Shown: in pieces, positions 37,457-61,914 of the stretch
Numbering within the stretch: position 1 is the first letter of the stretch
How the letters are laid out: each line of letters opens with the position of its first letter
NCBI GenBank assembly: GCA_964579435.1
Contig: CAZOGI010000010.1
Span: 23,583 to 87,582 of the forward strand
Direction: 5' to 3'
Length of the DNA: 64,000 bases
DNA from: an uncultured Planctomycetales bacterium
Lineage (GTDB): Bacteria > Omnitrophota > Gorgyraeia > Gygaellales > Profunditerraquicolaceae
Position numbers and translations under genes: made by a program
The notes under the pieces: model-generated
Told to the model about the DNA's origin: nothing
The model's database searches: none
What the model saw: the letters and a program-made list of their open reading frames with translations, nothing else

Positions 37457-37475
37457 CGGGCCGTTTTGCGGCCGT

Positions 37476-37814
37476 TCATGTCTTCTGGCCCTCTGCCTCC
37501 AGCAGCACGAGTCTTTGGGTAAGCAGTTTGATCTTCTGTTCGAGACAGGAGATAGCGATCGAAAAATGGAGCAGCATCGCCGTGATGACGAAAAACGCTG
37601 CAAGAAAGAGCAGGGAGGGAGGGTAGTAGACGCCGACGAGCGCCGAGACCCGCTCCAGCAACGCGCGCCAAAGGCACAGGGAGAGGAGCATCCCGCAGCC
37701 CAGAAGCCACAGCAGGGCATACTTCTCCTTAAGACGCCCCGTGCGGATGCTGTAGAAGACAAAACCGACCAGCGCCAGGATCCCGCATACCGCAAACACT
37801 TGTATCCGGCTCAT
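37476..37814 (-). CDS. Small DUF2304-like membrane protein (GT2-partner)
   Basis: 112 aa, 3-4 TM helices. Immediately downstream of a DPM1-like GT2 with a 4-nt overlap, the usual GT2/DUF2304 pairing. Confidence 0.5.
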   Translation of the reverse strand: MSRIQVFAVCGILALVGFVFYSIRTGRLKEKYALLWLLGCGMLLSLCLWRALLERVSALVGVYYPPSLLFLAAFFVITAMLLHFSIAISCLEQKIKLLTQRLVLLEAEGQKT

Positions 37815-38548
37815 TCCTCGCCTCCCGGGTTATCCGTTTTTCCTGCCGACACCAGCAACAGCGCCAAAGAGACTTTGGCCATGTAATACAACGCCCGCAA
37901 AGGGGTAATGCTCGAGCGGCCGCCGCAACGTCCCCGCATCGCCACCGGCACCTCAAGCACCCGGAAACCGCTCTTGAGCGCCAAAACCGTCGATTCCGGC
38001 TCCGGATAATCATCCGCATACTCCCGGGAAAAAAGCTCGACCACCTCACGCCTCATGAGACGCATACCCGAAGTCGGATCGGTTATCCAAACTCCGGTCC
38101 GCAGCCAGATCAGGCAGGACAGGAACCGGATACCGATCCTGCGCAGGAACGTGGAAGGATAGCCGCCTGCGGCACGGAAACGCGAGGCAATGACCATATC
38201 CGCACCCGCCTGCGAAGCGCGGCGGCACAGCAGCGCCGCCATCGCCGGGAGCGCCGCGGCGGGATGCTGTCCGTCGCCGTCAACCTGAACGAGGGCGTCA
38301 AATCCTTGGCGCAGGCAATAACGGAAACCCGTCTGCATGATCGCGCCGATCCCCATGTTGAAAGGCATCCGTAACACCGTAGCCCCGGCGGCACGGGCGG
38401 ACTCATCCGTCGCGTCCCCAGAAGCATCGTCGATCACCAGGACCTCGGCAGCCACGCCCGAACCCTTGACCTCGGCGATGACACCCCGAATGCTCTCTTC
38501 CTCGTTGTATGCGGGGACCACCGCCAGAACCCGCAATTGCTCACTCAT
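37811..38548 (-). CDS. Glycosyltransferase family 2 (polyprenyl-phosphate sugar synthase, DPM1/GtrB-like)
   Basis: LAVVPAYNEEESI...VLVIDDASGDAT...QVDGDGQHP motifs. Confidence 0.75.
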   Translation of the reverse strand: MSEQLRVLAVVPAYNEEESIRGVIAEVKGSGVAAEVLVIDDASGDATDESARAAGATVLRMPFNMGIGAIMQTGFRYCLRQGFDALVQVDGDGQHPAAALPAMAALLCRRASQAGADMVIASRFRAAGGYPSTFLRRIGIRFLSCLIWLRTGVWITDPTSGMRLMRREVVELFSREYADDYPEPESTVLALKSGFRVLEVPVAMRGRCGGRSSITPLRALYYMAKVSLALLLVSAGKTDNPGGEE

Positions 38549-40769
38549 AGGCCGGCGCATCCTCCCGCAACGGATCAACCGCTGCCCCCGCGAGGCTGCG
38601 CTCGATCATCCAGATCTTATCCTTCAACTGCTCCTTTATCAACGCCTCCTGCCGGGAATCCCCGAGCCGTTCCACCACCCGCCGGTAGACGGCAATACTC
38701 TCCTGCGCACGGCCAAGGCGCTCATAGCACACCCCCAGGTAATACTGTGACAGGGAAAATTCCGGGACAACGCAGACGATCCCTTCCAGATGGGGGAGCG
38801 CCTCGCTAAAAAGGGACTGGGACATAAGCGTCATGGCCAGGTTATACCGGGCCGGCAGCAGGGCCGGCATGATCTCCAAGCAGCGCTGATACAGCCGGAC
38901 CGCTTTTTGCGGATTTCCCGCGCTGCGGTAACAGACCGCCGCGTTTATCATCGCTTGCACCGCCTGCGGGTGCTCCTTAAGGACGGCCTCGAACGAGGCG
39001 ATCGCGTCAGAGTAGCGTTTCTGCTGCAGGAAAGAAAACCCCTGCGCATACGCCGGGCTGGCGCCTGCGTCATTGAGGAACGCAGCGATCTTCTTCTCTA
39101 CTCCCATCTTCAGGAAGGCCTCGCGGGCATCCCGGGGCGCCATCCCCTGTAACCGCAGCGCCGCCTCGAGCAACAGGTACAGCTCAAGCGCATCATGATG
39201 CAGGAGCAGCGTCTGCTTGATGACCGTTTCCGCCGCCGCAGCCTCGCCGCTGCGCAGCAGCGCCTCGGCGAGATTGCGCCCGGCCCACAGATGGTTCGGG
39301 CGCAAACGCAGAGCCTCCCGGTATTCGCCGATTGCCCGCGGCAAATCCCCCCGCGCGTGATAGAGGAGCCCGACCTGATTATGCGCATCCGCCAGCGGCA
39401 CCTGGTCGAAATTGGGCGCGTGCAGGCTCGTCGCCCTTACCATGACCAGCACCAGCGCGCCCCGCGCCAGGAGTTCCCTGCCGCGCTGCGCGCGCGCGGC
39501 ATTCACGGTTGCGGCCAAAAAATCAGCCGCCCAGAGAGCCAAAACCGGCACCAGGACTTCCCGGTACCGGTCGATTATGTGGCCCAGGATCAACACCAGC
39601 GACGTCACAAAAAAATAGAGGATCAGCGGACCGTGCCCTTCCAGACCGCGCCGGCGCAGGATCATCCACGCCAATCCGCTTAGACCAAAGACGGCCAGCG
39701 GCCAGAACCCGATCGAGCCGTAGCGCAGGAGGCGCGAGCGCAGCCGGAAATACGCCATCTGGTAATTATCGGAGAGCCCGGTCCGGTTTACCAGGAGTAT
39801 GGATTTGCGGCCGAGAAGCTGCCAGAAATGCGCCGGATCGGACCGGATCTCCTCGATCGTCTGTCGGGTCCAGAAACGGGAGACCTGCGACGGCTTCAGG
39901 GGACGGCCGCTGCGGCGCCGGGCCTCGCGCAGCGAATCGATCTCTTCGAACGCCGGGTCGATGCGCATGAAATCCGGCTCTTTGAGGCCGCCGTCGGCAC
40001 CCCGGAAATTACCGATGTAAAAGTTGATCCCGGCGCCGTAGGTCGTCAAAACCGCATCTTTACCGACAACCAAATTGCGCACGGCAAGGACGCCGATGAC
40101 CAGGCCGAAACCGAGCAGGAAAGAGAAAACGCGCTTGACGGCGGGTGCGCTGAGGCGGCCGGTAACGGCGATGAAAACGGCCAACGCCAGGGCAAAAACA
40201 AGCACGGTATCCTTTGCCAGGGCGGCAAACCCCAGGCACATCCCCGCGGCGAACCAGGCCGCAGGTTTCAAAGAACGCTGCGCCCGCATGACGCACCAGA
40301 GGCCGGCCGTGCACCAGAAGACTTCCAAAACCGATTTCAGGAGCAAGCTCTCGAAAAAGATCGCCGGTCCGTAGAAAACGCTGATCAGGGAAGCCAGGAG
40401 CGCCCTGCGGCGCGACATGAGCATGCACCCCATCGAATACACGAAAAGCGGGACGCAGGAACCGATCAGGAACTGGATAAGGCGAGCGGCGGTGATCGAA
40501 CCTCCGAGGGCGTACACCACCGCCAAAAAATACGCGTACAGCGGCGAGACAAAATAGATGCCGTTGCCCAGCCACCCTTTGGAGAGAAGCGAGCGCGCCC
40601 AGGCGTCATAATACTGGGAATCGAAAAGGAGGGAACCAAAAAGGATGTCGCCGCGCACCTCAAAAAAATAGGCCAGGCGCAGCACAAGGGCGGCGGCAAA
40701 GAGAGCTCCCCAGAGCCATCGGGGGGGAGGTTTGAGCGCCGCACCGGGAGTGGCGGGTGATCGCGACAT
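38541..40769 (-). CDS. GT-C-fold (ArnT/PMT, GT39/GT83-like) membrane glycosyltransferase fused to C-terminal TPR repeats
   Basis: N-terminal 450 aa polytopic, with an FDSQYYDAWARSLL motif. C-terminal 280 aa of TPR repeats. Confidence 0.65.
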   Translation of the reverse strand: MSRSPATPGAALKPPPRWLWGALFAAALVLRLAYFFEVRGDILFGSLLFDSQYYDAWARSLLSKGWLGNGIYFVSPLYAYFLAVVYALGGSITAARLIQFLIGSCVPLFVYSMGCMLMSRRRALLASLISVFYGPAIFFESLLLKSVLEVFWCTAGLWCVMRAQRSLKPAAWFAAGMCLGFAALAKDTVLVFALALAVFIAVTGRLSAPAVKRVFSFLLGFGLVIGVLAVRNLVVGKDAVLTTYGAGINFYIGNFRGADGGLKEPDFMRIDPAFEEIDSLREARRRSGRPLKPSQVSRFWTRQTIEEIRSDPAHFWQLLGRKSILLVNRTGLSDNYQMAYFRLRSRLLRYGSIGFWPLAVFGLSGLAWMILRRRGLEGHGPLILYFFVTSLVLILGHIIDRYREVLVPVLALWAADFLAATVNAARAQRGRELLARGALVLVMVRATSLHAPNFDQVPLADAHNQVGLLYHARGDLPRAIGEYREALRLRPNHLWAGRNLAEALLRSGEAAAAETVIKQTLLLHHDALELYLLLEAALRLQGMAPRDAREAFLKMGVEKKIAAFLNDAGASPAYAQGFSFLQQKRYSDAIASFEAVLKEHPQAVQAMINAAVCYRSAGNPQKAVRLYQRCLEIMPALLPARYNLAMTLMSQSLFSEALPHLEGIVCVVPEFSLSQYYLGVCYERLGRAQESIAVYRRVVERLGDSRQEALIKEQLKDKIWMIERSLAGAAVDPLREDAPAYE

Positions 40770-40773
40770 TGGG

Positions 40774-41757
40774 TTACCTCTCCTGGCGCGCCTGAAAAAG
40801 CGCCAGCGCTTTCAGGACGACGCAGGTGGTATGCAAATAGAACCCCTCATCGACGCGCCTGCCGTAGAGGGCGCGCAAGCGCTCGTAGTCCCCGAAGGAG
40901 CCGTTCGGATTCTGGCAGGAGAGAAGGAACTTTACTCCCTGAGGGATAATCGTTGCTGTGCGCATTTTGAGCAGTTCCATGCACAGTAAAAGCTCGGCCA
41001 CCAGGTCGGGATCCCGCTTTCCGATATATGCCGCAGCCAGATCGCTCAGGACCGAATCCAGGTATTGCGCATCGCTTTCGCTCAGCAGCTCCGACAGGGA
41101 GTCGTCACCGAAGCCGGCGAGCGCCAGGACCTCATGCGTCAGCGCGTACACCTCCAGCGTATCGAGGGCAGAAGCATCGGGACGCGCCTGGATAATGCCC
41201 GCGCGGTATGCCGCACGCAGGTCAAAGGGCGGCTCGATGCCGAAAAAACGGTAATAGACGGCGAAAGCCAGCTGCTGGTTAACGCCCCGGGAAGAAAGGT
41301 GCGCGTTCAGGCGGGGGAGGATGGCGCGGATCTCTTGGCGGTATGCGGTTGTCTCGAAGCCGGATTTCTCCAGGAGGTAACAAAAACGCAGGTACGAGGT
41401 CGCATCCTCGGCAAACTGCTCCGCCGGGATCGCTCCCATATCGTGAAACGAAGCCTCCTCGGTGATGCGGGCGATCTTGCGCAGGCGCAGCTCGAGGGAC
41501 GGCCGCAGCTGCGGCGGCAGACGGGGCGCGATCGCCGTATACGCTTCAAAAAGCTCGACGGTCTTTTTCTTCCCCTTGATCCCGAAACGGCGCAATTGCC
41601 CCGGGTTAAACTCGATCGTATCCAGCCAGGGCGCAGCCTTGATCATGCTGCGCAGCAGGAGTTCCCGGAGCAAAGGCTCCGAGGAAGCGCCGCAACCGGG
41701 CACCGCGACAGAGAGGCCGACAACCAAAGCAAGGGGGAGGAAGGTACGGTTCGTCAT
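40774..41757 (-). CDS. Hypothetical secreted protein/lipoprotein
   Basis: N-terminal signal peptide MTNRTFLPLALVVGLSVAVPGCG. First gene of the minus-strand operon. Confidence 0.4.
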   Translation of the reverse strand: MTNRTFLPLALVVGLSVAVPGCGASSEPLLRELLLRSMIKAAPWLDTIEFNPGQLRRFGIKGKKKTVELFEAYTAIAPRLPPQLRPSLELRLRKIARITEEASFHDMGAIPAEQFAEDATSYLRFCYLLEKSGFETTAYRQEIRAILPRLNAHLSSRGVNQQLAFAVYYRFFGIEPPFDLRAAYRAGIIQARPDASALDTLEVYALTHEVLALAGFGDDSLSELLSESDAQYLDSVLSDLAAAYIGKRDPDLVAELLLCMELLKMRTATIIPQGVKFLLSCQNPNGSFGDYERLRALYGRRVDEGFYLHTTCVVLKALALFQARQER

Positions 41758-41868
41758 AGCGACTTGAGGAAATATTATAACATGAAAGGTCGCAGGGACA
41801 CAATGACCCTTGATACCAGCCTAAAATCCCATTGAGTTAACCGGCGGCGGTTGATAGAATAAGGGCAG
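41758..41868. promoter_or_regulatory. Divergent intergenic promoter region
   Basis: 111-bp AT-enriched spacer between the divergently transcribed operons (minus 40774-41757 and plus 41869 onward). Contains TATAAC-like and TTGATA elements. Confidence 0.4.
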
Positions 41869-43308
41869 ATGAATATATTACTCCTGAACCCCTCCTTCGG
41901 CCCCGACTTCTGCAAATCCGCCCGCTGGTTCGCCCGCTCGCGCGGCAGGGTGCAGCGCCATCCCGATTTCCTCTGCGAGGCAACGGCGCTTCTGGAAGCG
42001 CACGGACACGACTGCGCGCTTATCGACGCGGCTGCCGGGAACCTCGGCGCCGAAGAGACCGCCCAACACATACGCCGCATCCGGCCGCAGTTGACGCTCA
42101 TCCAGGCAACGACCCCGAGCATCGATTCCGACATCTCCTGGGCCCGGCAGGCAAAAGAGCTGACCGGCGGCAGGTCCCGCACCGTTCTGGTCGGAGCGCA
42201 CGTGACCGCCGAACCCGAAGACACCTTGCGGCGGGGCAGGGGCGCGGTTGATGCCGTTGCCCGGGGAGAGTACGACCTGACGCTCAAGGAACTGGCAGAT
42301 GGATCTGACTTCGGCTCGATCCTTGGCCTTGCGTACCTGAGCGCCGACACGTTCGTCGCCACCGCGCCGCGCCCGTTCATCGAAGACCTGGACACGCTGC
42401 CCTTTCCGGCGTGGAGACACATCGACCCGCGCACCTACCGCGACGGGACCAAACGCCACCCCTTTATCACGCTGCTGGGCTCCCGGGGGTGCTTGGGGAC
42501 ATGCACCTTCTGCCTTTTGCCGCAAACGATGTACGGCCGCCGCGCCCGGACCAAGAGCCCGCAGCGCATTATCGATGAGATCCGCTACGATCTTGGCCTC
42601 TTCCCGTTCCTGAAGGAGATCATGTTCGAGGACGACACCTTTGTCAGCGCCGCTAACGCGGGGCGCCTCGAAAGCATATGCCGCCTCCTGGAAAAAGAAC
42701 GCATCCGCATACCCTGGAGCGCAAACGCGCGCGCCGACCTGCTCGACCGCGCGCTCCTGGAGCGCCTTAAAAAATGCGGTTGCAGGATGCTCTGCGTCGG
42801 TTACGAATTCGGCGCCCAGGAGATGCTGGATGCGGCCGGCAAGAATATTCCGCTTTCGACGATGCGCGAATTTTCCGCGTGGGCTGCCGAAGCCGGTATC
42901 CGCCTGCACGGCTGTTTCATGTTCGGCGGACCGGGGGAGAACGAGCGGACCTGCAGACAGACCCTGGAGTTCGCCAAAGAGCTTCCCCTGGAAACGGCCC
43001 AGTTCTCGGGGATCGCCGCGTACCCGGGCACCGCGTATTACCGGTGGTCGAAAGAGAAGGGATATCTGTGCGCCCGCGACTGGAGCGACTGGGTCCGCGC
43101 AGACGGCGAGCAGGCGACGGTGCTGCAGTTCCCCGGACTCCCCAAAGAAGAAATAAACCGCTGGATCAACAGGAGCCTGCGCGAATTTTACCTGCGTCCG
43201 GCGCAGCTCGCCCGGCTCGCGGGGGCGAGCCTGCGCAGCTGGAACGATTTCGAAACAAGGCTCTACGGTCTGCGTCAATTACTCGCGGGCGAGGCGCTCA
43301 AACGATGA
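41869..43308 (+). CDS. B12-binding domain radical SAM protein (class B rSAM) 1
   Basis: N-terminal cobalamin-binding Rossmann-like domain. CxxxCxxC (GCLGTCTFC). 479 aa. Confidence 0.8.
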   Translation: MNILLLNPSFGPDFCKSARWFARSRGRVQRHPDFLCEATALLEAHGHDCALIDAAAGNLGAEETAQHIRRIRPQLTLIQATTPSIDSDISWARQAKELTGGRSRTVLVGAHVTAEPEDTLRRGRGAVDAVARGEYDLTLKELADGSDFGSILGLAYLSADTFVATAPRPFIEDLDTLPFPAWRHIDPRTYRDGTKRHPFITLLGSRGCLGTCTFCLLPQTMYGRRARTKSPQRIIDEIRYDLGLFPFLKEIMFEDDTFVSAANAGRLESICRLLEKERIRIPWSANARADLLDRALLERLKKCGCRMLCVGYEFGAQEMLDAAGKNIPLSTMREFSAWAAEAGIRLHGCFMFGGPGENERTCRQTLEFAKELPLETAQFSGIAAYPGTAYYRWSKEKGYLCARDWSDWVRADGEQATVLQFPGLPKEEINRWINRSLREFYLRPAQLARLAGASLRSWNDFETRLYGLRQLLAGEALKR

Positions 43309-44705
43309 ACGTGCTCTTTATCGAACCTCCTGCCTTCGGCCCGTTCGGGACCCTGCGGATCCTGGGCAGCATCGGCTCGCTCAAGGCCGACATCCGCTGG
43401 CCGCCGTACGACCTGATGATCCTGGCGGGGATGGCGCGCGCGCAAAAACATCGCGCGCAGATCATCGATGCCCAAACCCGGGGCATGGACCTGCGCGCCG
43501 TGAAAGCCGCGATCGCCTCGCGCAATCCCGATTTTGTCGTTTTCACGACGACGCCGTTGACGCTGAGAGAGGATGCCCGCGTCGCAGAAGCCGCAAAAGC
43601 GGCTTCTGCCGCCATTCGCACCGTTGCCGTCGGACTCTCCATGCGCGCCTATCCGCTCAACCCCCTGCAGGAGACCCCGGCGCTGGACTATGCGGCGTAT
43701 GCCGATCCCGAGCCGATCCTCTCACAACTCCTGGAAGGGTGCCCCCCCGAAACAATCCCCGGGATATACCGCAGAGGCGCCGATCTTGCCGTCAAGAACC
43801 CGCCTGCGCAGCCGGCCCCGGATCTTGACCGCTTCGGTATACCCGCCCAGGACCTCATCGAGCATGCGCGATACCGCGATCCGCTCATGCGCGCGCGGCC
43901 GATGACCATCGTCAACTGTTCCCGCGGCTGTGCGGGATCCTGCGCCCACTGCCTCTCCGTTTTCCAGAAACCCCTGCGCTACCGAAGCGTCGCTTCGGTG
44001 ATGGAGGAGCTGCGGCTGTGTTGGCGGCTGGGCGTGCGCGAGATAAAATTTTTCGATTGCGGATTGACCAACGACCCTGACTGGACACGAAGGCTCTGCG
44101 AGGAGATGCTGCGCGGGGGGCTGTGCTTCTCCTGGAACGCAAACAGCCGTTGCGACCGTCTCAGCCTGCCGCTTTTGAAGCTGATGAAAAGAGCGGGGTG
44201 CCATACGGTGGCGATCGGCTCGGAGAGCGCAAGCAATACGGTACTGCGGGAGATGAACAAAGGGGTCACCCGCGATGGCATTGCCAAAGCCGTCGCAGAA
44301 GCCCGGAAGGCAGGCCTACGCATCATGCTCTATTTCACCCTGGGGCTCAAAGGGGAAACCGAAGAGACCGTCAAAGAGACCATCTCCTTCGCAAAAAGAA
44401 TGAACCCGGACTTCGCCACCTTCGGCCTGGCCGTGCCCATCCCGCAGACTCCCTTTTACGATTATCTCGTATCACAGGGGCTGCTCAAGAACGCCGGGAA
44501 CGCCTCCGGCGACCCGGACAACATACCCGCGTTTTCCTATCCGGGTTTAAGCGCTGCGCGGCTCTTTGCGCTCTCCCGAGAAGCATACCGTTCGTTTTAT
44601 CTGCGCCCGTCCTACATCCTGAAGAAACTCCTGGGGGCAACGCCCCGGGGGCTGATCAACGACGCGCGCAACGCCGTATACCTGGCGAAACGGATACTGC
44701 AATGA
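43305..44705 (+). CDS. B12-binding domain radical SAM protein (class B rSAM) 2
   Basis: MNVLFIEPP N-terminus. CSRGCAGSCAHC motif. ATGA overlap with gene 1. Confidence 0.8.
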   Translation: MNVLFIEPPAFGPFGTLRILGSIGSLKADIRWPPYDLMILAGMARAQKHRAQIIDAQTRGMDLRAVKAAIASRNPDFVVFTTTPLTLREDARVAEAAKAASAAIRTVAVGLSMRAYPLNPLQETPALDYAAYADPEPILSQLLEGCPPETIPGIYRRGADLAVKNPPAQPAPDLDRFGIPAQDLIEHARYRDPLMRARPMTIVNCSRGCAGSCAHCLSVFQKPLRYRSVASVMEELRLCWRLGVREIKFFDCGLTNDPDWTRRLCEEMLRGGLCFSWNANSRCDRLSLPLLKLMKRAGCHTVAIGSESASNTVLREMNKGVTRDGIAKAVAEARKAGLRIMLYFTLGLKGETEETVKETISFAKRMNPDFATFGLAVPIPQTPFYDYLVSQGLLKNAGNASGDPDNIPAFSYPGLSAARLFALSREAYRSFYLRPSYILKKLLGATPRGLINDARNAVYLAKRILQ

Positions 44706-46093
44706 CCGGACAAACAATCCTCCTGGTCAATCCCGGTCACCGCGAATGGGCGCGTGTGCTGCCGCTGGGCATCGCCTACGTTGCCGCTGCCGCCCGGAAA
44801 GCGGGATTCCCGGTGCGCACGATCGACGCAACCGCCGAACGACTTTCACCGCAGGCGCTGGCCCTGCGATTGAAAAAACTCAAACCTGCGGTCCTGGGGA
44901 TCACCGCGACCACGGTGCAGATCGCCTCTGCCTGGGAGATCGCCCGCCTGGCAAAAGAGCATGATCCCGGCTGCGTCACGGTGCTGGGAGGAGTCCACCC
45001 CAGCGCGCTGCCCGAGGAGAGCCTGGGACAGCCGTCTGTTGATTTCGTCTGCAGGGGAGAGGGAGAAGCAACTTTCGTTTCTTTACTCAGCGCCCTTTCC
45101 TCCCGCACTCACCCAGGGTCGGTCCAGGGGATATCCTTCCGCTCAAACGGCTCTGTCGTGCACACGCCGGACCGCCGGCTCGTTCCCGATCCGGACCTCT
45201 TCGCGTTTCCGGCGCGGGAGCTCTTTGACTTCCCCCGCCGGTACCAAAGCCCCCTTGCCCTGCGAAGAAGATGCGCGACGATCCTGACCAGCAGGGGCTG
45301 CCCGGGCACCTGCACCTTCTGCAACAAAAATATCTCCGGAAGCGTCTTTAGGCCGCGCAGCCCCGCCTCGGTCATCGAAGAGATGGAATCGCTCATCCGC
45401 ACCTTCGGCATCCAGGAATTCCATATTGCCGACGACTGTTTCAGCTGGGACATGCAGCGGGTCATGGACCTCTGCGCGCTGATGCGCAAACGCATCCCCG
45501 CCATCCGCTGGGCCTGCACCAACGGCATCCGCGTCGACCGCTCGACCAAACCGTTCTTTCGCGAAATGAAAGCCGCCGGCTGTTACCGCGTCTCCTTCGG
45601 CGTCGAATCGGGAGACGAGGCGCTGCTGAAGCGCATCGGCAAGAATATAGACCAGGAATCGATACGCAGGGCCGTCTCGCTTGCCCAAAGCGCAGGACTC
45701 GTCACCATCTGCTTTTTTATGCTCGGCAATCACGGCGAGACTGCCGCTCACGCTCAAAAAACCATCGAATTCGCCCGCTCTCTGCGCACCGATTACGCCC
45801 AGTTCACGCTGGCCATGCCCTATCCGGGAACCGCATTTTTCAGGCAGCTGGAGAAAGAAGGCCGGATCCGCAGCCGCGATTGGAGGAGGTATTCGGTGTA
45901 CGGGCCGGACATTCCCTACGAGCCGGCCGGGATGAGCGCAGAGGAATTGCTGGGCTTCTACAGACAGGCGTACCGCGCCTTTTATCTGCGGCCACGGCAG
46001 ATCGCCTTTCTCCTTTCCCGGCGGCTGCGCCTCGGCGCCGGCATCGGCAGCTTCGTACGCTCATCAGCGGAGGTCTTGCGCCGTGCCCGATAA
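44702..46093 (+). CDS. B12-binding domain radical SAM protein (class B rSAM) 3
   Basis: MTGQTILLVNPG N-terminus. TSRGCPGTCTFC motif. ATGA overlap with gene 2. Confidence 0.8.
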   Translation: MTGQTILLVNPGHREWARVLPLGIAYVAAAARKAGFPVRTIDATAERLSPQALALRLKKLKPAVLGITATTVQIASAWEIARLAKEHDPGCVTVLGGVHPSALPEESLGQPSVDFVCRGEGEATFVSLLSALSSRTHPGSVQGISFRSNGSVVHTPDRRLVPDPDLFAFPARELFDFPRRYQSPLALRRRCATILTSRGCPGTCTFCNKNISGSVFRPRSPASVIEEMESLIRTFGIQEFHIADDCFSWDMQRVMDLCALMRKRIPAIRWACTNGIRVDRSTKPFFREMKAAGCYRVSFGVESGDEALLKRIGKNIDQESIRRAVSLAQSAGLVTICFFMLGNHGETAAHAQKTIEFARSLRTDYAQFTLAMPYPGTAFFRQLEKEGRIRSRDWRRYSVYGPDIPYEPAGMSAEELLGFYRQAYRAFYLRPRQIAFLLSRRLRLGAGIGSFVRSSAEVLRRAR

Positions 46094-47084
46094 GAGCGCC
46101 ATGCCGGACATAGCCATCATCATTCCCGCCCGCAACTGCGCCGGCACCATACCGCTTGCGCTACAGGCGTGCCTCAAGCAGGATTACGCCGGCAGATACG
46201 AAATAATCGTCGTGGATGACGGCTCAACCGATGATACCGCAGCGGCCGTCAAAAATTTCCCCGTGCGTCTCATCGAACAAAAACACGCCGGCCCTGCCTG
46301 CGCGCGCAACCGGGGGACAAAAGCTTCAGAGGCGCAGCGCTACGCTTTCATCGATGCGGACTGCGTGCCGCCGTGCGATTGGCTGCGGCGCCTCAACGCT
46401 GCCTTCACGGCAACGGGGTACGCCTGCGCCTACGGCAGCTACACGATCCGCAACAAAAACTCCCTCCTGGCGGAAGGGATCTACCGGGAAATACTCCTGC
46501 GCCACAGCCGCCTCAAACAGGACTCTGCCGCACTCGGCTCCTACAACGCAATCTTCGACGCGACAGTCTTTCACGAATGCGGCGGCTTCGACGAATCATT
46601 CCGGGACGCAAGCGCCGAGGACACGGAGCTGGCGTACCGCCTTCGCCGCAACGGCAAACGCATACTTTTTCTGCCGGAGTGCACAGTGGCGCATCTTTTC
46701 CCCGAGCAGCTGGATTTCTATCTGGCTTCCCAATTCCGCCACGGTTTCTGGAGAGCGCGTCTCTACAGGCTGCATCCGGCAATGGCGGCAGGGGACGGAT
46801 ACACGCGGCTCAAGGACATCATCGAGACGCCCGCGGCGCTCCTGCTGAGCCTCTGCGCCGCGTTCTTTTTTCATCACGCCTGCCGCGTTGCCGCACTCCT
46901 GCTCTTTGCGGGACTGCTGCTTGCGCATGGCGCCTCCGCGGCGCAGCTCTCCCTGCAGGCGAAAAAGCCGGCGCTCCTCCTGTATGCCGGCGCGCTGCTC
47001 CTGCGCAGTTTTGCGCGGGCATACGGATTCTTTTTCGGGCTTCTGGCACTTCCCGGCAAAAACCGATGCGCTGCTCGATCGTAA
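46083..47084 (+). CDS. Glycosyltransferase family 2
   Basis: IAIIIPARNCAGTIPLALQACL...IIVVDDGSTDDT. DAD motif. Confidence 0.75.
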   Translation: MPDKSAMPDIAIIIPARNCAGTIPLALQACLKQDYAGRYEIIVVDDGSTDDTAAAVKNFPVRLIEQKHAGPACARNRGTKASEAQRYAFIDADCVPPCDWLRRLNAAFTATGYACAYGSYTIRNKNSLLAEGIYREILLRHSRLKQDSAALGSYNAIFDATVFHECGGFDESFRDASAEDTELAYRLRRNGKRILFLPECTVAHLFPEQLDFYLASQFRHGFWRARLYRLHPAMAAGDGYTRLKDIIETPAALLLSLCAAFFFHHACRVAALLLFAGLLLAHGASAAQLSLQAKKPALLLYAGALLLRSFARAYGFFFGLLALPGKNRCAARS

Positions 47085-47752
47085 TCCCCGCCCACAACGA
47101 AGAGGGCACGATCCGGACGCTCCTGGAAAGAACCCGGGAGTTTCTCGGCGGAACCGGGGAATGCGAGATCATTGTGGTCGATGACGGCTCAAGCGATAAA
47201 ACCGCAGAGCGGGTGCAGAAACTGGCGGCATCGATCCCGACGATACGGCTCCTGCGTCTTTCTCCCCGCAGAGGGCAGGGGATGGCGCTTGCCGCCGGGA
47301 TTGCTGCCGCACAGACCGGCATCATCGTCACGATGGATGCCGACCTGCAGAACGACCCGGCCGATATCCCGGCCCTGCTTGAGCGTCTCGAAAACGGCTT
47401 TGACGTTGTCTGCGGCTGGCGCAAAAACAGGAAAGACCCGTTCGTAAAACGAATAAAATCCCGGGTCGCCAACCTCTTGCAACGCCTTTTGCTCGGCGTT
47501 AAACTGCATGATATGAGCTGCACCCTGCGCGCCTACCGGCGGGAGGCGCTCGAAGGGATCGAATTCGGGCGGGGGTATGATTTTTCGCTCCTGCCGTACC
47601 TGATCGCGCGCCGCAAAGCCATGCGCATCTGCGAGGTCCCGGTCAGCCACGAGCGCCGGCACAGCGGCACCTCCAAATACGGGTTTTGGGGGACCTGCGC
47701 CGGGACATTCGTCAGTTTTGTGCGCTGCGTTGCAGCGCGACCGCATAAATGA
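47066..47752 (+). CDS. Glycosyltransferase family 2 (DPM1/ArnC-like polyprenyl-phosphate sugar synthase)
   Basis: CSIVIPAHNEEGTI...IIVVDDGSSDKT...MDADLQNDP. 228 aa. Confidence 0.75.
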   Translation: MRCSIVIPAHNEEGTIRTLLERTREFLGGTGECEIIVVDDGSSDKTAERVQKLAASIPTIRLLRLSPRRGQGMALAAGIAAAQTGIIVTMDADLQNDPADIPALLERLENGFDVVCGWRKNRKDPFVKRIKSRVANLLQRLLLGVKLHDMSCTLRAYRREALEGIEFGRGYDFSLLPYLIARRKAMRICEVPVSHERRHSGTSKYGFWGTCAGTFVSFVRCVAARPHK

Positions 47753-47799
47753 GGCGTGACCATCTAGAAACAAGAGACCTGGGTCAGGAAACATGCACA

Positions 47800-49704
47800 A
47801 TGCAAGGATACCCCATGACTGATCGCCGATTCAACCTTTTCATCAGCTTCGCCTGCCTGGCGCTCATCGCGCTCTCCTACGCCAACACTCTCAAGGCGGA
47901 TTTCCACTTCGACGATTTCGACAGCATCGTCAATGTCCCGGCGATCCGCAGCCTGACCAATTTCAAGGAGATATTCCGTCTCACCGAACGGCCGCTCGTC
48001 AACTACTCCTTCGCCGTCAACTACTTCTTCGGAAAACTCAACGTCACCGGATTCCATCTGGTCAATATCGGGCTCCACGCGCTCTGCACGCTGCTGGTCT
48101 TTTTCTTCCTGCGGGAATTGCTTGGCGTACCCCTGCTTAAGGAACGCTACAGCCAAAAGATTGGCCGGTGGCTCTCTGCGGGAAGCGCGTTTCTTTTTGC
48201 CGTCCATCCGGCCAGAGTGGAAGCGGTCACGTATATTACCGCCCGATCGGAGAGCATGGCGTCGGCTTTTTATCTGCTCTCCTGCCTTTGCTTCCTGAAA
48301 TCCCTCTCTGACATCAAGAGAGAGCGGCTCTTCCAAGCGGCGGCAATTGTAGCCAGCGCCATCGGCATGGCAACCAAGGAGATCGTCGCCACACTGCCGG
48401 CGTCCCTGCTGCTGCTCGATTATCTTTTTGTGTGCGCCGGGAATCCCGCCTGCCTGAAGAAACGCGCCCGGTTCCATGCCTCGATGTTCGCCACGATCGC
48501 CGTTACCGTTGCGCTGGTGCTCTATTCGGACAAATGGGGAGCAGCCGGACTGGGTAACCCGAACCTGCACACGCCCCTTCAACACGCCCTCAGTGGTTTG
48601 CGCGCGTACGTCTATTATCTGGCCCTTTTCATCTTTCCGGCACCCGGACGCCTTAACTTCGACACCGATTTTGCCCTCTCCCGCAGCTTCACCGAACCGC
48701 AGGTCCTCGGCGCAAGCCTCTTCATCGCCGCGGCACTTGTCTTGGCCCTGTACGAATCGCGCCGGTGCCCCTTGATCACCTTCGCGATCTTGTGGTATTT
48801 TCTCCTGCTTCTGCCGACCACCAGCTTCATTCCGATCGAAGACCTCGTCTATGAGCGCAGGATGTATCTGGCCGCGCTCGGGCCCGGGCTCATCACGCTC
48901 CTTGCCCTCGGGCCGCTTCCCCGACGCCTGCGCATCGGCATTCTGGCGCTGACAGTCGGGATCCTCTCCCTGTGGACCATCCAGCGCAACGCCATCTGGC
49001 GAACCGAATTCTCCCTCCTGAGCGATTCGCTCAAAAAATCTCCGTACAAAACCCGCACGCTTACGAATATGGGCATGTTTTACCTCACCAAACAACAGGA
49101 CTTAGCTGCTGCCCGCTCCTACCTTGCCAGGGCCTTGCACTACAACCCGGATGCGGCAAACAGCCTGCTGAATATGGGCGTGGTGCAGCTGTTGGAGAAC
49201 AATCTGTCCGGGGCAGAACAACTTTTCCGTAAATTGCTTTATCTCTTTCCGGACGCAACCGCCGGCTATGTCAACCTGGCGACCGTATACCGCCGCTCCG
49301 GCCGGCTCCGGGAAGCAGAAGAGCTTCTACGAACCGCAATCACCATCGAACCTTCCTTCGCGGAAGCGTACGGGAATCTGGGCGTTATTCTGGCAAGCAA
49401 AAGAGAATTTGAGGAAGCCGAAAAGGCGCTTATTAAATCAATCGCTCTGAATCCCGATCTGCCTGAGCCGCACCATAGCCTGGGGCTCATCTATCAGAAG
49501 AGGGGTGACCATAAAAACGCTATCACTCAATTCCAGAGAGCCGTCACTTTGCAGCCTCAATTTTCAAAGGCTCTTTACAGCATGGGCATCTCGTACCTGG
49601 CGCTTGGAGATAAAGAAAAAGCAGAGGAGACGTATGCGAAGCTCCTGAAAATCAATCTTGATCTGGCGCTAAACTTGTTGTCCAGGATTGAGTTAAGACT
49701 TTAG
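47800..49704 (+). CDS. TMTC-like DUF1736/GT-C membrane domain plus TPR repeats (third paralog)
   Basis: DFHFDDFDSIVNVPAIRS...PLVNYSFAVNY...GFHLVNIGLHAL parallels 34685-37456. C-terminal TPR repeats. The ORF opens at 47749; probable start is ATG 47800. Confidence 0.65.
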   Translation: MQGYPMTDRRFNLFISFACLALIALSYANTLKADFHFDDFDSIVNVPAIRSLTNFKEIFRLTERPLVNYSFAVNYFFGKLNVTGFHLVNIGLHALCTLLVFFFLRELLGVPLLKERYSQKIGRWLSAGSAFLFAVHPARVEAVTYITARSESMASAFYLLSCLCFLKSLSDIKRERLFQAAAIVASAIGMATKEIVATLPASLLLLDYLFVCAGNPACLKKRARFHASMFATIAVTVALVLYSDKWGAAGLGNPNLHTPLQHALSGLRAYVYYLALFIFPAPGRLNFDTDFALSRSFTEPQVLGASLFIAAALVLALYESRRCPLITFAILWYFLLLLPTTSFIPIEDLVYERRMYLAALGPGLITLLALGPLPRRLRIGILALTVGILSLWTIQRNAIWRTEFSLLSDSLKKSPYKTRTLTNMGMFYLTKQQDLAAARSYLARALHYNPDAANSLLNMGVVQLLENNLSGAEQLFRKLLYLFPDATAGYVNLATVYRRSGRLREAEELLRTAITIEPSFAEAYGNLGVILASKREFEEAEKALIKSIALNPDLPEPHHSLGLIYQKRGDHKNAITQFQRAVTLQPQFSKALYSMGISYLALGDKEKAEETYAKLLKINLDLALNLLSRIELRL

Positions 49705-49808
49705 TGAGGAGTGAGGAGTTAGGAGTTTGGAGTTTGGAGCTATGCTTTTAGTTCGTATTTTCTCCCAACTCCTAACTCCCTACCCCCAACTCCCTACTCC
49801 CAACTCCC
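49704..49808. repeat. Inverted arrays of heptamer repeats forming a long imperfect hairpin
   Basis: Left arm (GTGAGGA)2 GTTAGGA (GTTTGGA)2 at 49704-49739. Right arm (TCCCAAC/TCCTAAC/TCCCTAC)x6 at 49763-49808. The arms are mutually complementary with a roughly 23-nt loop. Lies immediately after the stop at 49702-49704. Confidence 0.7.
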
Positions 49809-49950
49809 GAATCACCTTGCCGCCTAAAATGAGCGATGGCATACTTTATAATAGGTAAGAAGATCGGCAACAAAAACCATGACACCAGAGACAAGAAAAC
49901 AAAAAAGAAAGTGACTCTTGAGAATAAAATAATATAATAATAGTTAAGCC
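49809..49950. promoter_or_regulatory. AT-rich promoter/leader region of the giant gene
   Basis: About 65-70% AT in a 63% GC background. TTTATAATAGG -10-like element. AT-rich tract TAAAATAATATAATAATAGTTAAGCC directly before ATG 49951. Confidence 0.45.
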
Positions 49951-52900
49951 ATGAAGAGCTTACCGACAAAGAAATTTTTCCGCACTTTTCTCATCCTGGG
50001 GATAACGACGCTCCTGTGCGCAACCCCGCATGCCCTTGCCGCAACCCGTTTCTATTTCGACGCCTCAACCGCAGCAGATGTCACTGCCTCCTATGACGCC
50101 GGCTGGGAATACCAATCCGAGGCAGGCCGCTACAAACTCAACAGGACCAAAGGCTCCTCCGCAATAACCATCGGCACCCAGATCGGCCCCTGGACCGCCG
50201 GCAGCGCCAACCAGGCCCTTGACCGCCAGTACATAAGCGATCCGATCGAAGCCCAGACCATAAGCGGCACGGTCAAAGGCCAGGTCATGTCGCGTGAATA
50301 CAACACCAGCGATAACGTGAACCGGATGTACATCACGGTCAAAGTCGTCTCCAACGACGGTTCCAGCGTGCGGGGGACACTCCTTGCCCTCAATACCTAT
50401 TACACGAATGCCGAACTGATCAGCAACGTAACCCACCGCAACGCCATCCTTGCCAATTCCGACACCGTCACCAACGTCACCGCGCAGCAGGGCGACCGCA
50501 TCCTCATCGAGATCGGCTTCGGCAGCTCGACAACCCAGACCACGCCCGAAGGCTCCTGCAAATGGGGGGAGAATGCATCCGACCTCCCGGAAAACGAAAC
50601 CCAAACAACCGACGGTGCGGGGTGGTTTGAGTTCTCCGCGGATATCACTTTCTATACTCCGCCCAAACCGCAATTCACCCAGAAAGCCTACCAGTGGGAG
50701 AATGACGATTCAACCTCAGGCGTCAACGCCAATTCACAGGCAGCCGAAGACAATACCGCCCTTACCGACGTGCGCATCGGACAGCGCCTCACCTGCAGGA
50801 TGCAGGTCGAGAACGACTCAACCGCCGCATCGAGCGACACCGTCTATCAGCTGCAGTGGGAGAACAACACCGATAACCCCGGGCGCTGGTTCCCGGTCGG
50901 CTACGGGACGCAGATCTCGTACGCAACCGGGCTCGCCGGCTTAAGCGGCGCCTCAACCGGCACCACCGCGCTCTGCGGAACCCCCACGTACACCATGGTC
51001 GCCGGCACCTGGCAGTCAGGGACGAGCCAGAACCCGCCCCACTCCATGGAGACGCAGCGAAGCGCGGAATTCTCTTTTGTCATCGACACCGCCAACGCAA
51101 AAGAAAATAAAGTCTATCGCCTGCGCCTCTTCGACAAAACAAACGCCCAGGCTTTCAATGCCTACACCGTCTATCCGCAGCTGACCACCGTCACCGCCGC
51201 CAACAACACCCTGCGCTACAGCAAAGAGCCACTCGATGCGGTGCAGAACACCTGGCGCATGGCCTCCTATCTGGACGAAACCGGCTATGACAACAGCGCC
51301 TCGGATAACTCGGTTTACGATTCGCTCCCCGCCCGGCGGCTTGCCCTTCGTGCGCAAGCCGACCTGACCTTTACCTCATTCGATGTTTCGCAATACCCGA
51401 CCTCGCAGATGGCCGTAGGCGTGGGAGACTTCAACAACGACGGCTACAACGACCTGCTCATGGGCGGCCAGCGCTACGCGACCTATGTCGGCCGGGCATA
51501 CCTTTATCTCGGCGGCAGCCCGATGGACAGCGTCTGTGACCTCACCATGCAGGCCGGTGCCCTCTACACCAATTCTTATTTCGGCTCCGCGGTCGCGGTC
51601 GGAGATATCAACAACGACAGTTTCGACGACGCCGTGGTCGGCAACTGGGGGTATTACCGTATGTACCTCTACTACGGCTCCACGACCATGAACAACGTCA
51701 TCGACATGACCTTTACCGGCGAAGCGACGAGCGACTACTACGGCTATTCGATCGGCATCAACGACGTCAACGGCGACAGCTTCAAGGATATCGTCACCAA
51801 CGCCCAGTGGTGGAATAACGGCCAGGGAAGACTCTACGTCTATTACGGCGGCACCACGATGAACAATGTTTGTGACCTGACGATAAACGGACAGGGAGGG
51901 GTGCACAACTATCCCGGGTTCGCCTGCGTCGTCGAAGACGTCAACAACGACAGTTTTGCCGACATACTCGTCAGCTCTCCCTACTACTACTATTCGGACA
52001 TGCGCGGCAGGGCATGGCTCTGGTACGGCGGAAACCCGATGGATGCCACCTGCGACAAGACCTTTACCGGAGAGACAACGGGCTCCTATTTCGGCGCTTC
52101 GGGATTATCGATCGGCGAAGTCAATAACGACGGCTTTAAGGACATCCTTATCGGAGCCTACGTCTACAGCTCCACGAAGGGCCGATCGTATCTTTTTTAT
52201 GGAGCGACCGGCACGAGCATGGATATAACCGCTGACAAAACCATCACCGGGAACGCGGGAGACTATCAGGGACAGGGAGAGCAGATCGTCGACGTCAATA
52301 ACGACGACTACGCTGACCTGGTCATCGGCGCCGATGCCTTCGGCAACAGCAGGGGAGTGGTCAAGATTTACTACGGCGGCGCCGACATGGACATCGTCGA
52401 AGACCTCAGCATCGCCACGGGCCAGACAGGCAACTATTTTTCCCAATCGGTCAATACGGGCGACCTGAACAACGACGGGGCCGCTGACCTGATCATCGGA
52501 GCCAACAGCTATCCGAGCCTCACCTACCAGGGCCGCGCCTGGGTTTATTACACCAAACCCCTCTTTGCCCCAACCCAGATCTTCGCCAAAAAGAACACCA
52601 ACAACACCGATTACATCGCCTTTGCCTGGAAAGGCAAAACCGACATGGCCGCAACTTCCGACAACATCATCGTCGAGGCTGCCCAGCAGACGGCGATGGA
52701 TGGCACTAACGACGAGACATTCACCGGAGAAGCGGGGAGCAATTTTTTCAGCAACTGTATCGCGCTTGCCGATTTCAACAACGACCATTACCAGGACCTG
52801 GTGCTGGGCGCCGACGGCTACAACAGCAACCAGGGCCGCGCCTATCTCTACTACGGCGGCACCGGCATAGTCGACACCGCCGCGGCACTTACGTTTAATT

Positions 52901-57924: not shown

Positions 57925-58745
57925 CAACCCGTCTTTTTTGCATCGAAATAGCCGATTATCCCTTCGGCATAGAAGCGCCCGAACCCCTCTGGGGCGCATT
58001 TCAGGAAACCTATCTGCCGTTCCTGAGCGCCCGGGAGCCGCGCTACCGCATCCGCGCCGAGATCGACCCCACCGCGCAACCCGTTGACCTCTGGGAGGGG
58101 ATGACCCTGGATAAGACGACGCTCTCGATCAGCGATGACACCTCGAGTGCGCGTTTCGATTTCAAGACAAAAGAAGGGACGATCCGCCTGAACCCCGCCA
58201 GACTCCTGGTGCCGTTGGGCGCCTTCCTGCGCAATATCGTCACTGTGCTCTTGAGCCTCCAGGATGACGGCCTCCTGATGCATGCCTGCGGGGTCCTGTA
58301 CGAAGAGGAAGCATTCCTCTTCACCGGGCGTTCCGGCGCCGGAAAAACGACGGTATCGCGCGCGCTCGCCCATTTGCCGACGATCTCCGACGATCTTTTG
58401 CTGGTCAAGCCCACCCCCGGAGGATTCGGCGTCTGGCCGCACCCGCGCTGGGGAGACCGCCAGAGCGGATCATTCCAAAACCGGCCGCACCGGATCAGCA
58501 GTATTTACCTCTTGTGCCAGGATACCGGGGTTTTCGTGAAAAGGCTCGGCCCGGCCCGGGCCACCGCGCACCTCTTGACCGTTCCGCACGTCCCCGTCAA
58601 CCGCATCCCCGCCGCGCGCATCCTGGAAAGCACCCAACGCCTGGCGGAGACGGTCCCGGTGTACGAACTGCACTTCCGGCCCGACCCGTCGTTCTGGGAA
58701 AAGATACTGCAGGAGAGAGAAAGGATTGTCGCTGCATGGAAATGA
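57921..58745 (+). CDS. HPr-kinase-related P-loop protein (HprK C-terminal-domain-like)
   Basis: FTGRSGAGKTTVSRAL P-loop in an HprK-like context. ATG 57921 overlaps the giant gene stop at 57922-57924. Confidence 0.6.
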   Translation: MTTRLFCIEIADYPFGIEAPEPLWGAFQETYLPFLSAREPRYRIRAEIDPTAQPVDLWEGMTLDKTTLSISDDTSSARFDFKTKEGTIRLNPARLLVPLGAFLRNIVTVLLSLQDDGLLMHACGVLYEEEAFLFTGRSGAGKTTVSRALAHLPTISDDLLLVKPTPGGFGVWPHPRWGDRQSGSFQNRPHRISSIYLLCQDTGVFVKRLGPARATAHLLTVPHVPVNRIPAARILESTQRLAETVPVYELHFRPDPSFWEKILQERERIVAAWK

Positions 58746-59017
58746 AATCAGCAATCCCGTTCAAGAACGAGAAGACCGCTTCCCGCATCATCCAGGACCA
58801 GGCCGTGATCGTCATCCTGGAAAACCAGGAGACGGTGGTCCTCAACGAGAGCGCCTCGCGCATCTGGGAACTAAGCGACGGGAAACGCACGCTCGGGGAA
58901 ATCGCCCGCATACTGGAAGAGGAATTTTCGGTATCCGCGCAAACCGCCCTGCAGGACGCCGCCGCCTTCCTGGGCGAAGCGGAAGGCAAGGGGATCTTTT
59001 CACTCAACCGCCCATGA
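58736..59017 (+). CDS. PqqD-family protein (RiPP recognition element-like peptide chaperone)
   Basis: 93 aa. QAVIVILENQETVVLNESASRIWELSDGKRTLGEIARIL is a typical PqqD/RRE fold signature. Confidence 0.7.
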   Translation: MEMKSAIPFKNEKTASRIIQDQAVIVILENQETVVLNESASRIWELSDGKRTLGEIARILEEEFSVSAQTALQDAAAFLGEAEGKGIFSLNRP

Positions 59018-60194: not shown

Positions 60195-60207
60195 GCTCAG
60201 GCGTACC

Positions 60208-61824: not shown

Positions 61825-61914
61825 CCCAACTCCTTCAGCGACTGGGAATTAAAAAAATCTTGCCCGATCGGATGAATTGTGTTAGAGTATTAAAAATATA
61901 GGTAAGAGGGGACA

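Follow-up and report, generated by a model that had tools for sequence, protein, structure and literature searches.

What do three consecutive genes for B12-binding-type radical S-adenosylmethionine (SAM) proteins do inside a bacterial polysaccharide locus? The question is raised by a 64,000-nucleotide stretch of DNA (the window) from an uncultured Planctomycetales bacterium, placed in the Omnitrophota by GTDB (assembly GCA_964579435.1, contig CAZOGI010000010.1, positions 23,583 to 87,582), in which the three genes, here called rSAM1, rSAM2 and rSAM3, lie in tandem. The class B radical SAM group comprises more than 220,000 enzymes, most of them without known function, and no sequence signature is diagnostic of their chemistry (PMC12931638). 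An initial annotation of the window had described the three genes as a triplicated set and suggested a role in unusual sugar or lipid modification. Our results support a model in which the trio quite probably modifies a glycan or glycolipid. More specifically, and with confidence a little short of even, we favor the view that the three are distinct radical SAM enzymes serving a single pathway, conserved and portable, that tailors a lipid-linked sugar donor. What we observed directly is the integrity of the genes, their domains and operon structure, their orthology and conserved neighborhood, and the families and fold closest to them.

Three distinct radical SAM lineages in one operon

All three proteins have the class B architecture, in which an N-terminal B12-binding domain (PF02310; 43.5, 39.2 and 80.3 bits for rSAM1, rSAM2 and rSAM3, respectively, against a Pfam cutoff of 32.1 bits) is fused to a radical SAM core (PF04055; 54.7, 78.6 and 73.0 bits, cutoff 29.5 bits) that carries the CxxxCxxC motif of the superfamily for the [4Fe-4S] cluster. 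This domain content is as first annotated, as are the three plus-strand genes themselves, although the proteins are 463–479 aa long rather than 467–479 aa. The open reading frame (ORF) listing and the translations place ATGA start/stop overlaps at both the rSAM1/rSAM2 and the rSAM2/rSAM3 junction, consistent with the translational coupling proposed earlier. None of the three is a pseudogene, a possibility that had been raised for the trio, because alignments to intact homologs span 93–100% of the length of each protein. The AlphaFold2 (AF2) model of rSAM1 has a mean predicted local distance difference test (pLDDT) score of 90.1, with a radical SAM core fold and a high-confidence N-terminal alpha/beta domain.

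The trio did not arise by triplication at this locus. Pairwise identities among the three proteins are 26.5%, 33.2% and 31.3%, against the 30–50% foreseen for ancient paralogs, and thus the paralogs are old; they represent three distinct lineages, each with its own orthologs elsewhere. In a neighbor-joining tree of 79 radical SAM proteins, the rSAM1 group (18 loci) and the rSAM2 group (26 members) are each monophyletic. The third slot is mixed: rSAM3 of the window clusters only with its counterparts in five loci (L004, L006, L008, L010 and L011), and other loci carry a member of a different clade, so that this slot differs between lineages. The distribution of the three also differs, in that the rSAM1 lineage extends far beyond the trio and rSAM2 is the rarest orthogroup, restricted to the module described below.

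Gene overlaps run on downstream of rSAM3, and the trio therefore belongs to a six-gene operon of rSAM1, rSAM2, rSAM3, two glycosyltransferase family 2 (GT2) genes (GT2a and GT2b) and a gene for a membrane protein with tetratricopeptide repeats (TPR), extending from 41869 to 49704 (Table 1). The start of GT2a overlaps the end of rSAM3 by 11 nt, the true start of GT2b is the ATG at 47066, 19 nt within GT2a, and the membrane/TPR gene begins at an ATGA overlap with GT2b.

A conserved module in other genomes

Orthologs of the trio occur in metagenome-assembled genomes (MAGs) of Omnitrophota, Nitrospirota, Elusimicrobia, Planctomycetota/Brocadiales and other groups, with best identities of up to 57% for rSAM1 and up to 50% for both rSAM2 and rSAM3; the rSAM1 orthologs, at 46–57% identity, come from many phyla. 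A genome scan with an rSAM2 profile recovered 28 loci, all from MAGs, of Omnitrophota, Nitrospirota/Thermodesulfovibrionia, Elusimicrobia, Brocadiaceae, other Planctomycetota, Bdellovibrionota and Bacteroidota, along with one Aenigmatarchaeota, and contained no representative above 48% identity. In about 16 loci, the genes form a compact core that consists of a PpgS-like GT2, a DUF2304 protein, rSAM1, rSAM2, a third B12-type radical SAM protein and GT2a; these loci belong to Omnitrophota, Nitrospirota, Elusimicrobia, Planctomycetota, Brocadiaceae and unclassified MAGs. A triplet of rSAM1, rSAM2 and a variable third member, which the initial annotation had suggested looking for in related genomes, recurs across phyla. 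A metagenomic contig (L004/L005) preserves the synteny of the window on both sides and adds a fourth radical SAM gene. Among 110 ORFs neighboring 13 loci, a Pfam census counted 22 Glycos_transf_2, 9 DUF2304 and 5 PMT_2 domains, with 8–10 members of the GT2a-type families (Glyco_transf_21 and Glyco_trans_2_3). That orthologs recur beside GT2, DUF2304 and GT-C glycosyltransferase genes in so many phyla is in line with the earlier suggestion of an unusual sugar or lipid-linked-sugar modification. A literature search found no description of this module.

Two of the compact modules, L006 and L008, lie outside exopolysaccharide (EPS) loci, beside groES/EL, pantothenate kinase and uvrB genes. These loci bear on the idea that the trio works after polymerization, methylating or epimerizing either completed EPS or a repeat unit carried as a lipid-linked oligosaccharide. 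Such a role would fit the position of the genes within a Wzy/Wzz-type EPS locus in the window, but the module also occurs without EPS assembly genes, and the polymer is located in the periplasm, away from the cytoplasmic radical SAM enzymes, making post-polymerization modification very unlikely.

The individual lineages have informative neighborhoods of their own. GT2a is kept beside rSAM1 orthologs: in L119/L120, an rSAM1 ortholog and GT2a lie between two PMT_2 genes, and in L122, the same two genes lie beside a gene for a TMEM260-like GT-C protein with TPR and an LPG_synthase_TM gene. In a metagenome scan for rSAM3-like genes, 37 loci had 3 kb or more of sequence on either flank. An ArnC/PpgS-like GT2 gene lies within 2.5 kb in 18 of these, and 13 contain a further B12-type radical SAM gene. 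Four loci (L060, L061, L065 and L086) contain a cassette of an ArnC-like GT2, an rSAM3-like protein and a PMT_2-type GT-C protein, and for L065 we verified the order DegT, GT2, B12 radical SAM, PMT_2 and methyltransferase, with overlapping genes.

Some rSAM1 orthologs (P0008, P0015, P0017 and P0019; positions 7001–9094 of L119) are fused at the C terminus to a class I SAM methyltransferase, giving proteins of about 700 aa, and a methyltransferase is encoded by a separate adjoining gene near the rSAM1 ortholog in L003 and in Lawsonia. The fused or adjoining methyltransferase suggests that the rSAM1 product is later methylated.

Two further relatives extend the range of the module. The Aenigmatarchaeota locus, from a MAG of the DPANN archaea (L020, JAFGAZ010000020.1), encodes an rSAM2 ortholog of 43% identity together with further B12-type radical SAM proteins, which implies that part of the module has been transferred between domains. 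A related cassette is found on plasmid 1 of Lawsonia intracellularis, a cultured pig pathogen (L038; NC_008012, 27 kb). It comprises a GT2, GalE, another GT2, two DUF2304 proteins, a SIS protein, an rSAM1-like gene (34% identity) and five class I methyltransferases, as well as a second radical SAM gene, a GT2, a HAD-IIIA hydrolase, a GHMP kinase and a DUF2142 protein; genes of heptose type are among them. This plasmid may offer an experimentally accessible relative.

A proposed link to polyprenyl-phosphate sugar donors

The partners conserved with the trio point to a specific type of glycan chemistry. In the operon that diverges from the trio, a short GT2 gene is directly followed by a DUF2304 gene, an arrangement of GacI/GacJ type that is kept in related loci, and a GacI/PpgS-like GT2 lies beside radical SAM genes in more than 10 loci. 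In the known system, GacI makes N-acetylglucosamine-phosphate-undecaprenol, and GacJ, a DUF2304 protein, binds GacI and strongly stimulates it; the GT-C enzyme GacL then transfers that sugar outside the membrane, with PpgS and Rv3632 behaving alike (bioRxiv 10.1101/180810). The window resembles both the GacI/GacJ/GacL system of Streptococcus pyogenes and the PpgS/Rv3632/Rv3779 system of Mycobacterium tuberculosis in having a short GT2 and a DUF2304 protein with a GT-C protein encoded nearby. The DUF2304 gene was missed in the initial annotation. It is easily overlooked because it lies inside an over-extended ORF call on the minus strand (34685–37795, 1036 aa, TTG start) that conceals it in another frame. 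It scores 112.7 bits with a local hidden Markov model and 82.2 bits with Pfam (PF10066).

A second comparison is with the Arn pathway, in which ArnD modifies a polyprenyl-phosphate sugar before transfer by a GT-C enzyme. The gene order of L065 (DegT, GT2, radical SAM, PMT_2) resembles ArnB/ArnC/ArnT with a radical SAM gene inserted. We know of no Gac, Ppg or Arn system that includes radical SAM enzymes. The synthases in the window also differ from the characterized ones in that they fall below the respective family cutoffs: the GT2 of the divergent operon scores 90.7 bits against 370 for the PpgS equivalog model (NF058614), and GT2b scores 130 bits against 529 for the NCBIfam ArnC model.

These partners also help to weigh an alternative in which the trio acts on soluble nucleotide sugars, making an unusual nucleoside diphosphate (NDP)-sugar (C-methyl, deoxy or epimerized) for the adjoining GT2s. 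Linkage to GT2 genes and to epimerase, dehydratase and aminotransferase genes fits this alternative equally well, and AprD4 and the gentamicin-type class B enzymes use soluble saccharides or pseudosaccharides. However, the tightest partners of the trio are membrane-associated (DUF2304, the GacI-like GT2, GT2a with its transmembrane helices, and GT-C proteins), the closest family, HpnJ, is presumed to use a lipid-anchored sugar, and the compact modules L006 and L008 lack NDP-sugar pathway genes. A nucleotide-sugar substrate thus seems unlikely.

Placement among characterized class B enzymes

HpnJ is the curated family closest to rSAM1. In NCBIfam, the HpnJ model (TIGR03471) is the best match for rSAM1 (331.3 bits) and rSAM2 (182.2 bits) and scores 192.3 bits with rSAM3, whose best match is BchE (TIGR02026, 205.7 bits; rSAM1, 116.3 bits; rSAM2, 96.1 bits). 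Scores against the AprD4 family (NF033070) are 89.6, 109.6 and 91.8 bits for rSAM1, rSAM2 and rSAM3. All of these values are far below the curated cutoffs (HpnJ, 577.6; BchE, 481.35; HpnR, 650; NF033070, 500 bits), so that none of the three proteins reaches any curated family tested. The same holds across the rSAM1 lineage: every one of the 44 orthologs examined has its top curated match in HpnJ (best E value 8e-122), yet none of them reaches 577.6 bits. Genuine HpnJ from Paraburkholderia is 33–35% identical to rSAM1 over 97% of rSAM1, and in the tree, HpnJ is the next outgroup to rSAM1 after the Lawsonia/L028 pair.

The initial annotation had named assignment to housekeeping families as grounds for abandoning a glycan role. 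Such families do supply the top curated matches, HpnJ and BchE, but these matches do not argue against a glycan role, because the scores lie far below the cutoffs and because HpnJ itself is presumed to act on a lipid-linked glucosamine. It is in our view extremely unlikely that the trio are housekeeping or peptide-modifying class B enzymes, whether BchE, true HpnJ, hopanoid methylases or methylases of RiPPs (peptides that are made by ribosomes and then modified after translation). The 206-bit BchE match of rSAM3 speaks for such a role, as does a set of ScmC, PqqD and radical SAM/SPASM genes 12 kb downstream of the trio; against it, an 8-kb gene separates the trio from that set, precursor peptide and PqqD genes were not found in the compact modules, and bch and hpn genes were not found in the window. 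Profile cutoffs and context together largely rule out all four of these assignments.

The reaction presumed for HpnJ is the contraction of the glucosamine in bacteriohopanetetrol (BHT) glucosamine to a cyclitol, analogous to that of calditol synthase, with neither enzyme reconstituted so far (PMC13459092). rSAM1 has the same two-domain architecture and length as HpnJ, and both have a membrane GT2 as partner, joined in some loci by an LPG_synthase_TM protein; the presumed substrate of HpnJ is a lipid-anchored amino sugar (PMC13459092). The two differ in context: rSAM1 has no hopanoid genes nearby and its partner GT2a is not HpnI-like, whereas hpn clusters lack both the GacI/GacJ-type pair and the one to three further radical SAM paralogs of the module. 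No hopanoid gene (shc, hpnH, hpnI or hpnK) was found among the Pfam and NCBIfam matches of the window genes or in related loci.

This relationship raises a second alternative, remodeling of a headgroup in the manner of HpnI/HpnJ, in which GT2a would glycosylate a membrane lipid and rSAM1 would contract or rearrange the sugar, giving a headgroup that resembles the cyclitols of BHT cyclitol ether and calditol. Here, rSAM2 and rSAM3 would tailor the headgroup further, and the end product would be an envelope lipid rather than a GT-C donor. Beyond the proximity of rSAM1 to HpnJ, the pair of rSAM1 and GT2a is the most widely conserved (L003, L119 and L122) and mirrors the adjacency of hpnJ and hpnI. 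GT2a has C-terminal transmembrane helices, and an LPG_synthase_TM (HpnL-like) gene, which follows genuine hpnJ and hpnI in Paraburkholderia, accompanies rSAM1 orthologs in L001 and L122. Compact modules, moreover, often lack a GT-C gene. Nonetheless, GT2a has no pairwise similarity to HpnI and scores just 26 bits with the HpnI model, an HpnK-type deacetylase was not found, GT-C genes flank the radical SAM genes in the window, L004, L119 and L122, and the strict linkage to a GacI/GacJ-type pair, which makes a polyprenyl-phosphate sugar, would be left unexplained. We therefore consider an HpnJ-like glycolipid pathway unlikely. GT2a as an equivalent of HpnI was not supported, blastp giving no match.

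By structure, the nearest enzyme is AprD4, which is the closest solved structure by sequence for all three proteins (6FD2; E values of 5e-24, 3.5e-26 and 6e-20) and the top PDB fold for the AF2 model of rSAM1 (TM-scores of 0.76/0.80 over the full length), followed by MgmA, TsrM, CysS, OxsB and TokK. A sugar ring is the target of AprD4, which removes water from a sugar diol and binds no cobalamin despite its Rossmann-like domain (PMC12931638). It differs from the trio in its low identity (23%), its CxxxCxxxC cluster motif and its soluble aminoglycoside substrate (PMC12931638). The example of AprD4 is relevant to cofactor use in the trio, and no sequence motif is diagnostic of cobalamin binding. 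The GGxHP...LPEE segment of the B12 domain is canonical in rSAM3 and in the alternative clade of the third slot; rSAM1 retains part of it, and members of the rSAM2 clade show no conservation there. Because rSAM3 keeps the canonical GGxHP segment, cobalamin dependence is plausible for this protein.

More distant members of the class B group that act on sugars or have known structures (GenK, GenD1 and Fom3; TokK, TsrM, CysS, MgmA and OxsB) share the superfamily and fold. Sequence searches with rSAM3 find OxsB, TsrM, TokK and CysS. Identities are lower than about 20%, and the trio falls short of every curated methylase family. The calditol synthase Cds of Sulfolobus, which is encoded with glycosyltransferases and for which ring contraction of a lipid-linked hexose to a carbocycle has been proposed (PMC13459092), is a functional analogy for a step of rSAM1/HpnJ type, drawn from its description rather than from a sequence comparison. 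It acts on an archaeal tetraether lipid, not on a bacterial polyprenyl phosphate.

A predicted pathway and its weight

We return to the tailoring of a polyprenyl-phosphate sugar donor, which could proceed in three steps. First, the GacI/PpgS-like GT2 and DUF2304 would attach an N-acetylhexosamine (HexNAc)-type sugar to polyprenyl phosphate on the cytoplasmic side of the membrane, with the GT21-like membrane protein GT2a also involved. Second, the radical SAM enzymes would take hydrogen atoms from the membrane-anchored sugar and remodel it. In this step, a conserved core rearrangement, for example a deoxygenation or a ring contraction, would fall to the HpnJ/AprD4-like rSAM1 together with rSAM2, and rSAM3 would contribute a lineage-variable tailoring reaction such as C-methylation, an assignment suggested by its canonical B12-domain motif and by the slot differing between lineages. 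Third, the modified sugar would be flipped across the membrane, and the flanking GT-C/TPR transferases would add it to an acceptor in the periplasm or at the cell surface, which could be a protein or the EPS made by this locus. In proposing these steps, we infer the substrate, the step order, the chemistry of each enzyme, the use of cobalamin and the acceptor.

Several points weigh against this model. To our knowledge, no radical SAM enzyme acts on a polyprenyl-phosphate sugar, which leaves the central step without precedent, and no flippase was identified. A recognizable PMT_2 gene lies within 6 kb in only 5 of 13 compact loci, and thus coupling to GT-C proteins is not universal. Gene neighborhood does not discriminate between a lipid-linked sugar, a nucleotide sugar and a finished polymer as the target. 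The model gives GT2a no defined role, and blastp detects no pairwise similarity between GT2a and HpnI. The proposed division between rearrangement (rSAM1 and rSAM2) and methylation (rSAM3) is suggested only by nearest relatives and conservation of the B12 motif, the mechanism assigned to the three orthogroups is likewise a prediction from genes and comparison, and the TMTC-like label that the initial annotation gave to the last protein of the operon holds at the level of architecture only.

Neighboring genes in the window

The features of the two divergent operons are collected in Table 1.

Table 1. Genes and other features of the radical SAM operon and the divergent operon (positions in the window)
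Feature	Position	Strand	Description
Membrane/TPR protein	34685–37456	-	Polytopic membrane protein with long TPR region, about 923 aa; paralog of the 47749–49704 protein
DUF2304 protein	37476–37814	-	Small membrane protein of the GacJ/Rv3632 family, 112 aa; ATGA overlap with upstream GT2
GacI/PpgS-like GT2	37811–38578	-	Polyprenyl-phosphate HexNAc synthase type; PpgS model 90.7 bits
GT-C protein	38541–40769	-	GT-C glycosyltransferase (PMT_2 domain) with TPR, 742 aa; PMT_2 37.5 bits
DUF6895 protein	40774–41757	-	One N-terminal transmembrane helix; first gene of divergent operon
Intergenic region	41758–41868 (111 bp)		Divergent, with promoter-like hexamers; between the two operons
rSAM1	41869–43308	+	479 aa; CLGTCTFC at residues 208–215; HpnJ-like B12-domain radical SAM protein
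rSAM2	43305–44705	+	466 aa; CAGSCAHC at residue 209; B12-domain radical SAM protein, degenerate B12 motif
rSAM3	44702–46093	+	463 aa; CPGTCTFC at residue 200; B12-domain radical SAM protein, canonical GGxHP
GT2a	46083–47084	+	GT2 of GT21/Glyco_trans_2_3 type, C-terminal transmembrane helices; GTG start
GT2b	47066–47752	+	228 aa; ArnC/DPM1-like GT2 of polyprenyl-phosphate sugar synthase type
Membrane/TPR protein	47749–49704	+	Polytopic membrane protein (about 9 transmembrane helices) with C-terminal TPR, putative GT-C-type transferase
Inverted repeat	49703–49807		GGAGT-rich, long and imperfect; directly 3' of operon

The two GT2 genes that follow the trio are as first annotated. The third gene, described as TMTC-like, encodes a protein with an invariant FxFDD loop motif in addition to its transmembrane helices and TPR, but residues 1–434 have no Pfam match at E ≤ 1, comparison with the PMT_2 group by hhalign gives a probability of 0.7%, and the AF2 model has a pLDDT of 55.7 overall and below 50 in the membrane domain. 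It is 30% identical over 654 aa to its paralog at the end of the divergent operon. The TPR proteins contain a FAVHPxxxEAVxYIxxRS segment, which we take to resemble the TMTC DUF1736 motif and do not use as evidence. Directly after the stop codon of the operon's TPR gene, the inverted repeat consists of two 37-nt arms of degenerate GGAGT/ACTCC units that are about 76% complementary. The repeat could act as a terminator or form some other structured element. A terminator scan gave no more matches than in shuffled sequence.

On the other side, the GT-C protein exceeds the PMT_2 cutoff of 26.1 bits and is 45% identical to its ortholog in L004, and the membrane/TPR protein of the divergent operon, most likely starting at the ATG at 37456, is 41% identical to its own L004 ortholog. 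DUF6895 stands at the head of the divergent operon both in the window and in L004 (5972–6970), and a sequence search of the PDB found no relative of this protein.

Profile annotation of the whole window reveals a glycan supercluster that includes Wzy, a GT4 initiating transferase, a Wzz/GNVR kinase and AsnB, confirming that the trio lies inside a polysaccharide locus. The window also encodes several GT1, GT2 and PMT_2/GT-C proteins, a class I methyltransferase and many sugar-nucleotide enzymes. Two more PMT_2-type GT-C membrane proteins are encoded upstream on the plus strand (3318–5156 and 11455–12975), the first directly after a class I methyltransferase gene (2602–3315). In total, at least five GT-C-like proteins are encoded, suggesting several lipid-linked sugar decorations. 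Between the Wzy and TPR genes, a plus-strand gene (32483–34717) encodes a 744-aa protein with a central spermine/spermidine synthase-like domain, which is unusual for an EPS locus.

Directly after the radical SAM operon, and downstream of a promoter-like site (49911–49938), a plus-strand gene (49951–57924) encodes a giant protein of 2657 aa in which numerous FG-GAP repeats are combined with a C25 propeptide and a gingipain-type Peptidase_C25 domain. The syntenic locus L004 lacks this protein, which could be exposed at the surface or serve as an acceptor for glycosylation. It is followed on the plus strand by a ScmC-like gene (57942–58706), a PqqD-like gene (58757–59002), a radical SAM/SPASM gene (about 59029–59979), a small ORF and an NTP_transf_5 gene. 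The cassette spans 57942–61839 and looks like a RiPP-style maturation cassette inside an EPS locus. A 436-aa ORF call (58726–60036) probably over-extends across the PqqD gene. The ScmC/PqqD/SPASM set lies directly before the Wzz/GNVR kinase gene (61915–63846) and is also present in L004.

Implications

The component parts of the module, a class B-type radical SAM enzyme, a GacI/GacJ pair and a GT-C transferase, are each known, and it is their conserved combination, with radical SAM genes set within a presumed polyprenyl-phosphate sugar donor system, that no paper found in the literature search describes. Conserved gene order ties three class B lineages to a known glycan logic of synthase, activator and GT-C transfer, turning anonymous annotations of B12-binding radical SAM proteins into a testable hypothesis on a new way of tailoring sugar donors. 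The finding is thus a solid and testable genomic lead rather than a demonstration of new chemistry.

A broader model is possible but distinctly doubtful: a widespread pathway, to date nearly confined to anaerobes that have not been cultured, whose two to four radical SAM enzymes would turn a polyprenyl-phosphate HexNAc into a non-canonical sugar (carbocyclic or cyclitol-like, deoxy and/or C-methyl-branched) that GT-C/TPR transferases would then install on envelope polymers or proteins. If true, radical SAM chemistry would here be seen for the first time on a polyprenyl-phosphate sugar donor, and the ring contractions of HpnJ and calditol would have a bacterial counterpart beyond hopanoid and archaeal lipids. 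The module itself also supplies a relative of HpnJ that is tractable, the ring contraction by HpnJ never having been reconstituted, and it points to unknown envelope sugars in Omnitrophota, Nitrospirota, Elusimicrobia and Planctomycetota.

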